The notes under the pieces are model-generated. The model was not told where the DNA came from. It searched no databases and saw nothing but the letters and a program-made list of their open reading frames with translations. A stretch of DNA of 10,874 nt from a virus: UHGV virus genome UHGV-0126855; one strand, written 5' to 3'. Below, one piece after another: positions 4,232-9,402 of this stretch. The first letter of the stretch is position 1; the number at the start of each line of letters is the position of its first letter. Made by a program: the position numbers and the translations under genes.

Positions 4232-5123
4232 CATATCTAATCTAGCCGAAGCCAGAGAGGCCAGAAGGCTACAACAACCGCATCAAAGCAGCGGTAAGGG
4301 GTATGCCTTGCTGCACCGTAAAATTATGGATGTGCCGTTTTACAAGGACGCAGAAGCAGCGCATCTGTGGGTTCACTTAATCCTCAAAGCAAAGCATACG
4401 CCTGAGTATGTAATGACTGACGCAGGAGAAATTCTGGTAGGCAGAGGGAAGCTACTTGGCGGTAGAAACTCTCTGGCGTTTGAAACAGGACTCAAACCAG
4501 ATCGCGTTCAGTACCTGCTTAGAAAGTTCAAAAAACTCGGCATGATTGACTGGGTTTCACACGGTAAATTCTCAGTTTTCTCGGTAGAGAAATATGACGA
4601 TTATCAGTCAAATTTTGTACCAGCAGATTACCAGCAAATTACCACCTCAAAGCCAGCAATACCAATGCCTGCAAGCAATACTGTACCAGCAGATTACCAG
4701 CAAATTACCACAGATAAAGAATATAATAATATTATCTCTAATACTGACGTATTAGAGAGTGCCACAGCAGACAAAAAGTCTGACAAGAAAAAACCTTCCG
4801 TCAGCTGTCAGGATGTTGTCGATGCTTACCACGAAATCCTTCCTGAAGCGCCAAGAATCCGCGCACTGAATGACAAGCGTAAAAACCAGATCCGAACGTT
4901 CTGGCGCAAAGCCGGAGTGATAACCCGCCAGCTTGACGGGCATGGGTTCACGATGCAGGACTGGAGAAATTATTTGAGCTACGTAGGCGAAAATTGCCGA
5001 TGGATGTTCGAAGAACGCCCAAACCATCAACGCGGAACCGTCTGGCACAAAAAGGGATTTGATTTCCTGCTTAACGACAATACCTACCTGAAAGTTCGTG
5101 AGGGTGAACACGATGACCGATAA
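4224..5123 (+). CDS. O-like replication initiator (299 aa) with the origin embedded in its coding sequence
   Basis: It occupies the O position upstream of the helicase. SD aaggag (4211-4216) precedes ATG 4224. Internal iteron DNA encodes the repeated peptide [10 protein letters not shown]. The stop overlaps the helicase start. Confidence 0.7.
4616..4745. repeat. Putative replication origin: iterons plus an AT-rich tract
   Basis: Identical 30-bp direct repeats tgtaccagcagattaccagcaaattaccac lie at 4616-4645 and 4682-4711. Each holds two ~13-bp sub-iterons CCAGCA(G/A)ATTACC, with a degenerate copy ccagcaatacc between them. The AT-rich agataaagaatataataatattatctctaatact follows. Confidence 0.6.
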
Positions 5124-7578
5124 TTTTTATGCGCCGCCCCATAGCATCGAGGCAGAGCAGGCGGTGATTGGTGGATTGCTTCTGGATGATGACAGCAGTG
5201 AGCGCGTCCAGAAAGTTCTGGCGATGCTGAAGCCTGATTCATTTTACAGCCGACCACACAAAATCCTTTTCGAAGAAATAACCAGAATGCACCGGGAGCA
5301 AAAGCCAGTAGATGGCCTGACGCTTTTCGATGAACTGGAGCGTAAATCGTTAACGGCGTCTGTTGGCGGTTTTGCTTATATCTCTGAGATCGCAAAGAAC
5401 ACGCCAAGCGCAGCAAACATCGTTGCCTATGCAATGCAGGTTCGTGAAACCGCAATGGAACGCTACGCCATCAACCGCATGACTGAAGCGACGGAATTGC
5501 TCTATTCCCGCAACGGAATGACTGCAACGCAGAAGTACGAAGCTATTCAGGCGATTTTCACGCAACTGACAGATCATGCAAAAACCGGATCGCGTCGCGG
5601 CCTTCGTTCATTTGGTGAGGTCATGGAAGACTGGGTTAGCGACCTTGAGAAGCGATTTGACCCGTCAGGCGAACAACGAGGAATGAGCACAGGGATCCCA
5701 TCGCTGGACAGGATGCTGTCACCGAAAGGTCTGGTGAAAGGCTCTCTGTTTGTCATTGGCGCTCGCCCTAAGATGGGGAAAGCGCAACCGCTTAATTCAC
5801 GCATTTTGCTTGCTGATGGTTCATGGACAACATTTCGTGACGTATGTGTTGGAGATTCCCTAGCATCAGTGGATGGACAACCATCATTCGTGTCTGGAGT
5901 TTTTCCTCAAGGGGAGCGAGATATTTACCGAGTTACGTTCTCTGACGGAAGAACCGTTGATTGCGCGGATGATCATTTGTGGGAAATTCATAGTAACCGT
6001 ATTACCGGTGGCGTTGATGTTGTAGACACCTGCCGCCTACGGGACATGATGGAATGCGTTCGCTATCAAAGCCGCATTCATGTTCCTGGTATTAGCGGTG
6101 ACTTCGGATTGCCTGTTGATTTAGGGATTAGCCCATGGCTGTTAGGTGCGTTACTTGGCGATGGAAATCTTGCAGGTACGCCACGAATCAGCATGACGGA
6201 ACCATACATCATTGAGCGAGTAAGATCTGAAGTGGGTGACGATATTGAAGTCAGACATGTTTCTGGCTGCGATTACTCCCTATCTCACAAGTTTAGCCGC
6301 AAATTATCTCTTACGCGGGTTATGCAACGGATTGGTATCTACGGCCGGATGTCAGAGATTAAAATTATCCCGGATATTATTTTTTCTGCTGATAAGCAAA
6401 CTCGTATTGATGTTCTATGCGGATTACTTGAAACCGATGGTTGGGTTGAAGGAAATAATGCCCTGCGCTTTAGCTCGGCAAGCAAGTTCCTGTCAGATGG
6501 TGTAAAGCGGCTGGTGCATTCTCTTGGTGGCGTGTGTCGTATGACAACCAAACAGGAGCCGAAATTCAGTTATAAGGGAGAAATGCGCAAAGGTATGGAT
6601 GCCCATATTTGCGCAATCAGGTTGCCTGATGAGGTTCTATCACACATAAAATCTCCACGCCTGAAGCAAAAATTCACTGCAAAACGCATCAAAACAAGTG
6701 CGCCTGTTATCACGTCGGTTGAGTATATTGGACGTGAAGAGTGCATTTGCATCATGGTATCCCACGAGAGACATTTGTATGCAACTGACGGATACATTCT
6801 AACCCACAACACCACGCTATACAGCCAGATGGCAATCAACTGCGCAGTGTATGAGAAAAAGCCCGCTCTGATATTCAGCCTTGAAATGCCAGGTGATCAG
6901 ATACTGGAAAAACTGGTAGGGCAGAAGTCTGGTGTTAACCCGAATATTTTTTACCTTCCGGCGACAAATGACGCCGATGACGGCTATCAGGGTGATTACG
7001 ATGGTGACTTCAACAGGGCGATCGAAACAGCCAATCGCTTGAGTGAAATCGACATGCTTTACATCGACGACACGCCGGGATTATCTCTGGCTCAAATCGT
7101 CAGCGAAAGCCGTCGAATCAAGCGAGAAAAAGGATGTGTTGGCATGATTCTGGTCGATTACCTGACACTAATGACCGCTGAGAAGGCCGATCGCAACGAC
7201 CTTGCTTACGGCATGATCACCAAAGGACTGAAGAACCTTGCCAAAGAGCTTGATTGCGTTGTTGTGCTTCTGACGCAGCTTAACCGCGCACTGGAAAGCC
7301 GAACCAATAAACGCCCATTACCAAGTGACTCGCGCGATACAGGGCAGATTGAACAGGATTGCGATTATTGGGTGGGGATCCATCGTGAAGGTGCTTTTGA
7401 TGACAGTGTTCCACCTGGTGAAACCGAACTAATCCTTCGTCTCAATCGTCATGGCAATACCGGCACGGTGTATTGCATTCAGGCAAATGGCGCTATTTAT
7501 GACACAGACCAACAGTCTGCTGAAATGCGCCGCCGTGAACGCGAGGAGCCGCAGTCCAAGAAGAAAGGAGGATTCTGA
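5113..7578 (+). CDS. DnaB-family replicative helicase, intein-containing (alternative start GTG 5098)
   Basis: N-terminus PPHSIEAEQAVIGGLLLD and the C-terminal half (KPALIFSLEMPGDQ…LTQLNRALESR…) align with E. coli DnaB from memory. The Walker A GARPKMGK|TT is split by a 343-aa insertion. Excluding the insert, the protein is about 470 aa. Confidence 0.9.
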   Translation: MTDNFYAPPHSIEAEQAVIGGLLLDDDSSERVQKVLAMLKPDSFYSRPHKILFEEITRMHREQKPVDGLTLFDELERKSLTASVGGFAYISEIAKNTPSAANIVAYAMQVRETAMERYAINRMTEATELLYSRNGMTATQKYEAIQAIFTQLTDHAKTGSRRGLRSFGEVMEDWVSDLEKRFDPSGEQRGMSTGIPSLDRMLSPKGLVKGSLFVIGARPKMGKAQPLNSRILLADGSWTTFRDVCVGDSLASVDGQPSFVSGVFPQGERDIYRVTFSDGRTVDCADDHLWEIHSNRITGGVDVVDTCRLRDMMECVRYQSRIHVPGISGDFGLPVDLGISPWLLGALLGDGNLAGTPRISMTEPYIIERVRSEVGDDIEVRHVSGCDYSLSHKFSRKLSLTRVMQRIGIYGRMSEIKIIPDIIFSADKQTRIDVLCGLLETDGWVEGNNALRFSSASKFLSDGVKRLVHSLGGVCRMTTKQEPKFSYKGEMRKGMDAHICAIRLPDEVLSHIKSPRLKQKFTAKRIKTSAPVITSVEYIGREECICIMVSHERHLYATDGYILTHNTTLYSQMAINCAVYEKKPALIFSLEMPGDQILEKLVGQKSGVNPNIFYLPATNDADDGYQGDYDGDFNRAIETANRLSEIDMLYIDDTPGLSLAQIVSESRRIKREKGCVGMILVDYLTLMTAEKADRNDLAYGMITKGLKNLAKELDCVVVLLTQLNRALESRTNKRPLPSDSRDTGQIEQDCDYWVGIHREGAFDDSVPPGETELILRLNRHGNTGTVYCIQANGAIYDTDQQSAEMRRREREEPQSKKKGGF
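5782..6810 (+). other. Intein (~343 aa) with a LAGLIDADG homing endonuclease domain, inserted in the helicase P-loop
   Basis: The insert lies between GARPKMGK and TT(LYSQMAINCAV). It ends in THN followed by Thr +1 (nt 6802-6813). Two LAGLIDADG-type motifs are present: LLGALLGDGNL (aa 348-358) and LCGLLETDGWV (aa 440-450). The N-terminal boundary at Ala229 is inferred to within a few residues. Confidence 0.75.
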
Positions 7579-7670
7579 TGACCATCTACATCACTGAGCT
7601 AATAACAGGCCTGCTGGTAATCGCAGGCCTTTTTATTTGGTGGAGAGTAATTGGAGGATTTAAGAAATGA
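7578..7670 (+). CDS. Small hydrophobic peptide (30 aa, single predicted transmembrane helix)
   Basis: ATG 7578 overlaps the helicase stop (tgATGa). A strong SD aaggagg (7565-7571) precedes it. Translation is MTIYITELITGLLVIAGLFIWWRVIGGFKK. Its stop overlaps the next start (aATGAg at 7667-7670). Not in the ORF track. Confidence 0.45.
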   Translation: MTIYITELITGLLVIAGLFIWWRVIGGFKK

Positions 7671-7882
7671 GTACGATAGCTGAGCTTGTCAGGGCTAATT
7701 TTCGTGAAGAGTTGGTGCGTTGGTATCGGTATCGTTCATCGTCAAGTTTGCCGCTTGATGAGTTGTATGAGCATTCACCTGCCGCACGACGCTATCCGCG
7801 TGACCGTGTTCTTCGGCGGTTGTTCAGACTCAACAATGAGTTTCAGCGCAACAGAATTATCCGGAGTCTGGATTTAAAGTGA
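7667..7882 (+). CDS. Hypothetical protein (71 aa)
   Basis: ORF translationally coupled to the upstream peptide gene through an ATGA overlap. Basic and Arg-rich, with no recognised motif. The overlapping alternative frame 7686..7877 is less likely. Confidence 0.5.
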   Translation: MSTIAELVRANFREELVRWYRYRSSSSLPLDELYEHSPAARRYPRDRVLRRLFRLNNEFQRNRIIRSLDLK

Positions 7883-7892
7883 AGGAGTGAGC

Positions 7893-8129
7893 ATGAGCGA
7901 CCTATCATTGACCCAGCCAAAGCTAAAAGAATGTCCGTTTTGCGGCGGTAATGCTCGTCTGTGGGTTGAGGCCGGAATAAATATTGATGTGTGGGGCTAT
8001 GCAGAATGTGACCTCTGTGAAGCCAGGGGGGCATGGGCACCATCAGTTGCTGCGGCGGCTGAAAAATGGAACCGGAGAGCAGGAGATGAAGCAAACCTTT
8101 CTGCTTCGCAACGAAGCAATCAGAAATAA
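7893..8129 (+). CDS. Lar-family restriction-alleviation-like zinc-ribbon protein (about 78 aa)
   Basis: SD aaggag (7882-7887) sits 5 nt before ATG 7893. The CPFCGG…CDLC four-cysteine motif is typical of Lar-family proteins. The 3' end overlaps the ninB start out of frame. Confidence 0.5.
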   Translation: MSDLSLTQPKLKECPFCGGNARLWVEAGINIDVWGYAECDLCEARGAWAPSVAAAAEKWNRRAGDEANLSASQRSNQK

Positions 8130-8532
8130 CGCCATAGACGCCATTCTCTCACTACCCATCGACGACAAGTCACCCCACGAAGTCCACGTTAAAGAACCCA
8201 AGCGCAGCAAAGCGCAGAATGACCGTATGTGGCCGATGCTGAACGATGTTTCGCGTCAGGTGCTATGGCATGGTCAACGGCTGGCACCGGAAGACTGGAA
8301 AGACCTGTTCACTGCCCTGTGGCTTAAGACCAAAAAACTGGAGCAAAGAAGTGTGCCTGGTATCGACGGTGGCGTTGTCATGCTTGGCGTGCGTACCAGC
8401 AAAATGCGAAAGGCCAGCATGACTGAGCTTATCGAAATCATGTTCTGGTTCGGCTCAGAGCGCAACGTGCGGTGGAGTGATGACTCCCGGCGAGAGTATG
8501 AATGGTCACAACGAAAAGGGAAGGCTGCATGA
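8086..8532 (+). CDS. ninB: NinB (Orf) recombination protein (about 148 aa)
   Basis: Translation from the internal Met, MKQTFLLRNEAIRNNAIDAIL…[19 protein letters not shown], resembles lambda NinB (…WSDEARLALEWKARWGDRAA) from memory. Confidence 0.8.
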   Translation: MKQTFLLRNEAIRNNAIDAILSLPIDDKSPHEVHVKEPKRSKAQNDRMWPMLNDVSRQVLWHGQRLAPEDWKDLFTALWLKTKKLEQRSVPGIDGGVVMLGVRTSKMRKASMTELIEIMFWFGSERNVRWSDDSRREYEWSQRKGKAA

Positions 8533-9056
8533 CTATCAAATCAAATACGCCAGCACACGACAAGGACTGCTGGCAAACGCCGCTTTGGCTTTTTGATGCA
8601 CTGGATATTGAGTTTGGATTCTGGCTGGATTCGGCAGCGAGCGACAAAAATGCTCTGTGTGCTCACTGGCTAACTGAGGCCGACGACGCGCTCAATTCTG
8701 AGTGGGTAAGCCACGGTGCAATCTGGAATAACCCACCGTACAGCAATATCAGGCCGTGGGTGGAAAAAGCCGCTGAGCAGTGCATACAACAGCGACAGAC
8801 GGTAGTGATGCTTGTGCCAGAGGATATGTCAGTCGGATGGTTCAGCAAGGCTCTGGAGAGTGTCGACGAAGTTCGCATTATCACTGATGGACGGATTAAT
8901 TTTATCGAACCATCGACAGGGCTGGAGAAGAAGGGAAACAGCAAAGGCTCAATGCTGCTGATTTGGCGACCGTTCATCAGTCATCGACGGATGTTTACTA
9001 CCGTATCCAAAGCGGCATTGATGGCGATCGGGCAGGGCGTCAGGAGGGCGGCATGA
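8529..9056 (+). CDS. Phage Dam-like DNA N6-adenine methyltransferase (orphan, about 175 aa)
   Basis: Start ATG 8529 overlaps the ninB stop (ATGA). It carries the NPPY catalytic motif (…[10 protein letters not shown]…) typical of N6-adenine methyltransferases. No restriction enzyme partner is present. Confidence 0.75.
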
Positions 9057-9235
9057 GACGACAGCGACGAAGTATCACCGACATCATCTGCGAAAACTGC
9101 AAATACCTTCCAACGAAACGCTCCAGAAATAAACGCAAGCCAATCCCAAAAGAATCTGATGTAAAAACCTTCAACTACACGGCTCACCTGTGGGATATCC
9201 GGTGGCTTAGAGAACGTGCGAGGAAAACAAGGTGA
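9053..9235 (+). CDS. ninE: NinE (60 aa)
   Basis: ATG 9053 overlaps the methyltransferase stop (ATGA). Translation [52 protein letters not shown]… matches lambda NinE as recalled. Confidence 0.8.
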
Positions 9236-9402
9236 TTGACCAAAATCGAAGTTACGAACAAGAAAGCGTCGAGCGAGCTTTAACGTGCGCTAACTGCGGT
9301 CAGAAGCTGCATGTGCTGGAAGTTCACGTGTGTGAGCTCTGCTGTGCAGAACTGATGAGCGATCCGAATAGCTCAATGTACGAGGAAGAAGACGATGGCT
9401 AA
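9232..9402 (+). CDS. ninF: NinF (56 aa, GTG start)
   Basis: GTG 9232 overlaps the ninE stop (GTGA). Translation (M)[55 protein letters not shown] matches lambda NinF as recalled. Not in the ORF track (presumably below its length cutoff). Confidence 0.7.

Follow-up and report, generated by a model that had tools for sequence, protein, structure and literature searches.

The viral genome sequence UHGV-0126855, of which we analysed a stretch of 10,874 nt (hereafter the window), carries at 7893–9056 three genes: one for a 78-amino acid (aa) protein resembling the Lar family of restriction alleviation proteins, ninB, and one for a 175-aa N6-adenine DNA methyltransferase (dam). The coordinates run from the ATG of the first gene through the stop codon of the last, with ninB in between. 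Gene-by-gene profile assignment identified the window as the immunity, replication and nin segment of a lambdoid Escherichia coli prophage, and the 7893–9056 region is the start of the delayed-early, pR-transcribed nin segment of that prophage. A reading made from the DNA letters alone (the sequence-only reading) had proposed that the Lar-like protein and the methyltransferase form an anti-restriction pairing that helps the genome escape host restriction. Our analysis leads to a plainer view. In all likelihood, these are ordinary, known nin genes that encode a Lar-family protein and a lone GATC methyltransferase, and that belong to separate cassettes.

The Lar-like protein has CPFCGG at residues 14–19 and CDLC at residues 41–44, such that C14-P-F-C17 and C41-D-L-C44 would make up a zinc ribbon. 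Its assignment to the Lar type held up in profile hidden Markov model searches, the check on which the sequence-only reading had made both family assignments depend; in these searches it scored above the curated cut-offs of both PF14354 Lar (E 1.8e-10; 41.3 bits, cut-off 28.6; profile positions 2–58 of 58) and TIGR03655 (E 4e-17; 62.3 bits, cut-off 39.6; positions 1–55 of 55). It also matched PHROG 599, "Lar-like restriction alleviation protein" (9.3e-39). Judged by these matches, it is a four-cysteine zinc-ribbon member of the Lar family. Structural resources contributed little. A sequence search of the PDB revealed weak zinc-ribbon similarity of the Lar-like protein to eL43, and it returned no relative for either the Lar-like protein or the methyltransferase, only chance-level matches and the eL43 zinc ribbons. 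The single-sequence AlphaFold2 (AF2) model of the Lar-like protein (mean predicted local distance difference test, pLDDT, 54) was too poor to add information.

The methyltransferase was likewise correctly recognized in the sequence-only reading as an N6-adenine enzyme with an NPPY motif, given that it exceeded the curated cut-offs of PF05869 Dam (E 4.1e-64; 215.8 bits, cut-off 28.1; positions 1–167 of 169) and of the TIGR01712 phage_N6A_met equivalog (E 3e-79; 264.3 bits, cut-off 97; positions 1–165 of 165). Together with a PHROGs match annotated "DNA methyltransferase" (1.3e-87), these results show the protein to be intact and full-length, and place it within the small phage N6-adenine methyltransferase family (PF05869/TIGR01712). 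N68-P-P-Y71, as well as D34 and A36 of the LDSAAS segment that follows strand 1, are invariant in 48 homologues. The AF2 model made from these 48 homologues (pLDDT 89; predicted template modelling score, pTM, 0.87) consists of one compact Rossmann-type domain and no second domain, with the invariant LD-x-A motif located after strand 1 and the invariant NPPY after strand 4. Foldseek searches with this model agreed on PCIF1, a eukaryotic cap N6-methyladenosine enzyme, as the nearest solved fold. The enzyme is thus predicted to be a minimal, gamma-class-like, S-adenosylmethionine (SAM)-dependent catalytic core without a separate target-recognition domain, and the model as it stands would not explain how GATC is read.

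The methyltransferase shares with the alpha-class enzymes E. coli Dam, T4 Dam and DpnM (PF02086) a reported GATC target, an N6-methyladenine product, orphan status and a Rossmann-type SAM fold. In contrast to these enzymes, it comprises only 175 aa and has motif I ahead of motif IV (NPPY), which is the arrangement of the gamma class, whose enzymes are also nearest to it in fold. A profile search with PF02086 gave no match, and the DPPY motif and inserted target-recognition domain that characterize the E. coli Dam/T4 Dam family are missing. Therefore, the enzyme is a "Dam" by its reported target and not by its family, and the description "Dam-like" given in the sequence-only reading is apt in the first sense only. 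Two other groups of enzymes were considered and rejected. M.EcoGII and M.EcoGI resemble the methyltransferase in being orphan adenine methyltransferases of E. coli prophages that are silent in the lysogen (PMC5778455); however, they are 349-aa beta-class proteins of another family (DPPY, target-recognition domain, FxGxG) that methylate adenine in any context (PMC5778455), and an M.EcoGII-type non-specific activity was discarded on that basis. Enzymes of the Hia5/Hin1523 type are DPPY/FxGxG proteins with a target-recognition region, unlike the enzyme studied here.

As to the target itself, the methyltransferase is identical at 174 of its 175 residues (99.4%) to the dam product of phage VT2-Sakai, M.EcoVT2Dam, the sole difference being P152H. 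M.EcoVT2Dam is said to have been cloned by Radlinska and Bujnicki in 2001. It is described, at second hand, as GATC-specific (PMC6602927, citing Radlinska & Bujnicki 2001). Based on this near identity, we infer that the window enzyme would target the adenine in GATC. The record of M.EcoVT2Dam is BAA94133/NP_050531, the same gene is found in 933W (L0094), phi24B and HK97, and the annotation of VT2-Sakai contains no methyltransferase other than dam within its first 50 kb. The codon of the variant residue H152 is located at 8982–8984; histidine occurs here in 2 of 149 IMG/VR copies and in none of 95 homologous proteins, and it is also present in E. coli M15. The window contains 33 GATC sites, where 42–56 would be expected, and no EcoKI site, where roughly one would be expected by an estimate that was not computed; for both, the window is too short to infer site avoidance.

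No cognate endonuclease accompanies the methyltransferase, as had been supposed. None is found among the open reading frames (ORFs) of the window, each of which fell into a phage family of regulatory, replication or nin genes. The annotation of the E. coli M15 prophage, which matches the region at 100%, lists none over ±12 kb, and neither does that of VT2-Sakai over its first 50 kb. The best PADLOC models for the protein are those for "orphan methyltransferase", and the enzyme is an orphan whose neighbours are ninB and ninE. Its location corresponds to that of lambda ninC/ninD, again as stated in the sequence-only reading: lambda has the order ninB-ninC-ninD-ninE, whereas the window has ninB-dam-ninE. 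In Vibrio phage 44E38.1 (H112) and Salmonella phage Oslo (H101), a Dam homologue is annotated as fused to a 3′-phosphoadenosine-5′-phosphosulfate (PAPS)-reductase (NinC-like) domain, or as adjoining ninC, which hints that Dam and NinC modules can combine in this slot and not only replace each other.

The lar-like gene, ninB and dam have been annotated before, in this order and under these names. The Lar-like protein and VT2-Sakai H0103/orf30 share 100% identity, the DUF7301 gene upstream of lar equals VT2-Sakai H0102, and VT2-Sakai dam occupies the same ninB-dam-ninE position with the same DUF7301 and Lar-like genes upstream. The prophage differs from VT2-Sakai in having lambda-type cI/cro and an intein-bearing helicase. 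Over 1.7 kb around the region, the DNA is 97–98.5% identical to many Shiga toxin (Stx)-converting phages (VT2-Sakai, phi24B, Stx2 II and the PA series), and the phi24B annotation reads "lar, ninB, hypothetical DAM, ninE". In E. coli M15 the region is present at 100% DNA identity under the same names from the NCBI Prokaryotic Genome Annotation Pipeline (PGAP), lar being called "Lar family restriction alleviation protein". Coverage of the lar-ninB-dam trio reached 80% or more in 624 of 5426 complete E. coli genomes and in 114 phage records. In the literature, lar already appears among the accessory genes of Stx phages, and anti-restriction is the function given for the methyltransferase in enterohaemorrhagic E. 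coli (EHEC) phages (PMC3430580, PMC12502783).

That lar lies two genes upstream of dam is correct, the order being lar, ninB, dam. It is the pairing that found no support. Co-occurrence was scored by searching the flanks of the top-scoring 80 IMG/VR loci for each query protein, a sample that includes many near-clonal prophages. Only 13 of the 80 loci with a 99%-identical Dam contained lar. A different ninB allele (~44% identity) was present in 59 of the 67 Dam loci without lar, and the genes upstream of this divergent allele were most often of the Ren and lambda P types, and otherwise a helicase, a primase or small unknown ORFs. Among lar loci with enough downstream sequence, dam was found in 65/67; of the two without it, one reads lar-ninB-ninE directly. 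DUF7301, on the other hand, was present in all 79 lar loci with enough upstream sequence, and never without lar in the Dam-anchored loci. The constant neighbour of lar is therefore DUF7301 and not dam, and the real pair at this locus is DUF7301 and lar. In the sampled loci, dam is followed by ninE.

The two families also differ in their spread. All 119 phage records with the Lar-like allele belong to E. coli or Stx phages, and almost every one reaches 95% identity, whereas the Dam family was found in 1911 phage records (Escherichia, Klebsiella, Vibrio, Lactococcus and others), 244 of which are at least 95% identical. Since the Lar allele is essentially confined to a near-clonal lineage, its association with dam is best explained by descent and linkage. 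Much of the window is shared by phage mEp234, where the order is ninA-ninB-ninE and both lar and dam are missing. Traces of recombination are visible at the 3′ end of lar: in one sampled locus, a 109-aa protein encoded upstream of ninB (L010:2272-2601) ends in …ASQRSNQK, the same as the Lar-like protein, and as this tail is encoded inside the ninB overlap we place a mosaic joint there. In four Dam loci without lar, the lar slot is occupied by a 70-aa Cys-rich protein, considered as a possible divergent Lar, that ends in …TEWNNL and has no Pfam match (e.g., L039:2371-2583). Taken together, the evidence says that lar and dam belong to separate mosaic cassettes, one consisting of DUF7301, lar and the 5′ end of ninB, and the other of dam and ninE, and that they are neighbours and not a system.

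The features of the region are listed in Table 1. DUF7301, lar, ninB, dam and ninE are arranged head to tail and tightly packed, with ATGA overlaps at the ninB/dam and dam/ninE junctions, and the ATG of lar is preceded by AAGGAG at a spacing of 5 nt; the five genes are probably translationally coupled. The terminator upstream of them has an 8-bp stem with 6 GC pairs, followed by TTTTTATTT, and its 32 nt match lambda exactly at 40596–40627, just upstream of lambda ninB. Given this exact copy of tR2, DUF7301 and lar must be inserted between tR2 and ninB relative to lambda. As tR2 precedes the whole block, the genes are delayed-early and would be read from pR only after N-dependent read-through. 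Their products would be made after DNA entry, and the incoming genome could therefore benefit less from them than replicated or progeny DNA.

Table 1. Features in and around the 7893–9056 region of UHGV-0126855
Feature	Coordinates	Strand	Evidence and remarks
Intrinsic terminator, lambda tR2	7607..7638	+	Terminator scan and exact lambda match; between the helicase gene and the nin genes
DUF7301 gene, 71 aa	7667..7882	+	PF23975 6.7e-26; phrog_1785 3.9e-33; constant upstream partner of lar
Lar-family zinc-ribbon gene, 78 aa	7893..8129	+	PF14354, TIGR03655, phrog_599; last 44 nt overlap ninB
ninB, orf-family recombination mediator, 148 aa	8086..8532	+	PF05772 9.1e-49, full length; phrog_72 4.2e-61; separates lar and dam
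Orphan phage N6-adenine DNA methyltransferase (dam), 175 aa	8529..9056	+	LDSAAS at 33–38, motif I-like; NPPY at 68–71
ninE	9053..9235	+	PF05322 3.2e-43; downstream boundary of the dam module

The remainder of the window opens with sieB-like and N (minus strand), continues with a ParA-like gene at the rex position and with lambda-type cI, cro and cII, and leads through an O-like initiator and a DnaB-type helicase to the nin genes. The gene for the SieB-like superinfection exclusion protein (17–457, +; PF14163 1.8e-13) appears truncated at the window edge when compared with the 540-nt gene of E. coli M15. Between N and cI lies a gene for a 347-aa ParA/MinD-like P-loop ATPase (1304–2347, −; AAA_31 2.8e-13), in a slot that is taken by rexAB in lambda and hicAB in mEp234; it has no PADLOC match, and is possibly a lysogen-expressed moron or an exclusion gene. 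The DnaB-type replicative helicase (5098–7578, +) is 826 aa long, compared with 478–483 aa in VT2-Sakai, mEp234 and E. coli M15. The extra length is due to an insert of ~345 aa (about 5790–6835) directly after the Walker A sequence GARPKMGK, with weak matches to Hint and LAGLIDADG_3, and by these sequence features the insert is taken to be an intein with a homing endonuclease. The DNA of the insert was found in 18 of 5426 complete E. coli genomes (at 99% identity or more) and in none of 50,697 phage records.

What these genes might do for the phage can be outlined as follows. Upon infection or induction, N-mediated read-through of tR2 would express the lar-like gene and dam. Dam would keep the fast-replicating phage DNA fully methylated at GATC, and this methylation would block methylation-sensitive GATC cutters and supplement limiting host Dam. 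In line with expression on induction, the phi24B copy of dam has been reported to rise when the prophage is induced (PMC3342100). The Lar-like protein, were it to act as first described for Rac Lar, would dampen type I restriction and favour the modification of unmodified DNA; the two proteins would thus act on different targets.

The functional precedent for the Lar-like protein is a disputed one. Rac Lar/RalR, the only studied member of the family, was described by King and Murray in 1995 as alleviating type I (EcoKI) restriction and enhancing modification. RalR was later reported not to alleviate restriction, and to act as a toxin with DNase activity that the antisense RNA RalA neutralises (PMC4041452). 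The activity proposed for the Lar family is like that of lambda Ral, which alleviates type I restriction and enhances modification (summarised in PMC4041452). However, Ral belongs to a different sequence family (Ral and RalR are 24% identical and are called unrelated; PMC4041452), lambda ral lies in the pL operon, and the Lar-like protein has no match to the Ral family. An anti-restriction role for the Lar-like protein would thus be a conventional attribution by family name only. The further suggestion that Lar and Dam jointly help the genome against host restriction is accordingly weaker than had been stated: the anti-restriction roles would be conventional attributions for both proteins, the function of Lar is disputed, GATC methylation would duplicate that of a Dam+ host, and expression would come after DNA entry.

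Several points weigh against the explanation that we favour. We found no experiment on this Lar-like protein in the literature, and the reports on the founding member of its family contradict each other (PMC4041452). The equation of M.EcoVT2Dam with the nin-region gene is based on the gene name in the record and on the sole methyltransferase in the first 50 kb of VT2-Sakai. Residue 152 of the window enzyme is histidine, a rare variant; among 48 homologues, 44 have proline here and the other 3 serine. The co-occurrence counts come from the top-scoring 80 loci per query, many of them near-clonal prophages. These points have to be set against those that speak for the alternatives. A coordinated anti-restriction pair, selected together for escape from host restriction, would fit with lar and dam sharing one operon, with the presence of dam in 65/67 lar loci, and with the conventional annotation of both families as anti-restriction (e.g., the PHROG label, and the DefenseFinder-style anti-restriction-modification calls for EHEC phage methyltransferases; PMC12502783). 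We nevertheless consider such a pair improbable, as lar is present in only 13/80 Dam loci, Dam combines freely with the divergent ninB allele and Ren/P-type upstream genes, and the lar allele is essentially limited to one near-clonal E. coli/Stx-phage lineage (119 records), for which linkage and descent suffice. In addition, ninB sits between the two genes, both would be expressed only after tR2 read-through, and their products would act on unrelated enzyme classes. Equally doubtful to us is that the Lar-like protein is a non-specific DNase toxin of the RalR type, belonging to a type I toxin-antitoxin pair, and not an anti-restriction factor. This idea draws on the report that Rac RalR cleaves DNA non-specifically and does not inhibit restriction-modification (PMC4041452). 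Moreover, the two proteins are similar in size (64 aa for RalR and 78 aa for the Lar-like protein), belong to the same Pfam/TIGRFAM family, and share the CPFCG…C..CE zinc ribbon, in which their cysteines align, and a C-terminal E(K/R)WN(K/R)R motif, across which the alignment also extends; opposite RalR K52, a residue at which the K52Q mutation abolishes activity, the Lar-like protein has an arginine. However, the identity is only 36%, and with 27.6 bits against a cut-off of 113 the protein fails the RalR equivalog model NF007260 and is not a RalR orthologue. It also differs from RalR in having an extra C-terminal tail that is encoded in the ninB overlap, and its gene is located in the pR nin operon, whereas ralR lies downstream of recET in the pL arm of Rac. 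Nor did we find an antitoxin: Rfam gave nothing RalA-like over the whole window at E values up to 1, blastn of K-12 ralA against the window gave no significant similarity (the best hit being a 16-nt match, E 0.09, far from lar), exact reverse-complement k-mers revealed no antisense match to lar of at least 11 nt in the 10.9-kb window, and a scan of 7400–9300 showed no inverted repeats involving lar. Finally, the gene is an ordinary early gene in intact, plaque-forming Stx phages.

The alternative that we take most seriously, though as less likely than not, concerns the methyltransferase, which may mainly serve phage or host physiology and not defence evasion. In runaway replication, with host Dam limiting, the phage enzyme would top it up and so keep GATC-dependent processes normal, including SeqA/MutH handling, gene regulation, lysogeny stability and the timing of induction. 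GATC protection would be largely redundant because the hosts are Dam+, and the 33 GATC sites in the window show that substrate is present. Stable lysogeny by 933W has also been reported to require host Dam, and in the phi24B study the phage dam was suggested to play a supplementary part (PMC3342100). Conversely, dam expression in phi24B climbs with induction, like that of a lytic gene; dam should be silent in a repressed lysogen, since it is located behind tR2; and orphan phage methyltransferases are generally read as anti-restriction. This physiological role does not exclude our favoured explanation of known nin genes in separate cassettes. We attach little weight to a last possibility, namely that DUF7301 and the Lar-like protein form a two-protein module that is not Ral-like, or that the specificity of the methyltransferase is unusual or broader. 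DUF7301 and lar are always inherited together and joined by the 44-nt overlap to one ninB allele, and their products could either join NinB in acting on DNA ends or counter a different defence system. As for the methyltransferase, GATC specificity may be achieved, for example, via dimerisation or via the loops at residues 38–63 and 121–140, or the real specificity may be broader than the reported GATC.

Public annotation of E. coli prophages and Stx phages already contains these genes, in this order and under these names, in hundreds of cases, and the locus carries little weight as a discovery. Its value lies in how such annotations are to be read. The "Dam" in the Pfam name denotes a reported target and not kinship with E. 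coli Dam, while "Lar" is a family label for an underlying activity that is contested, and which for the nin-region member would be carried over by analogy. The adjacency of such genes in the nin region reflects the exchange of mosaic cassettes and not functional coupling.
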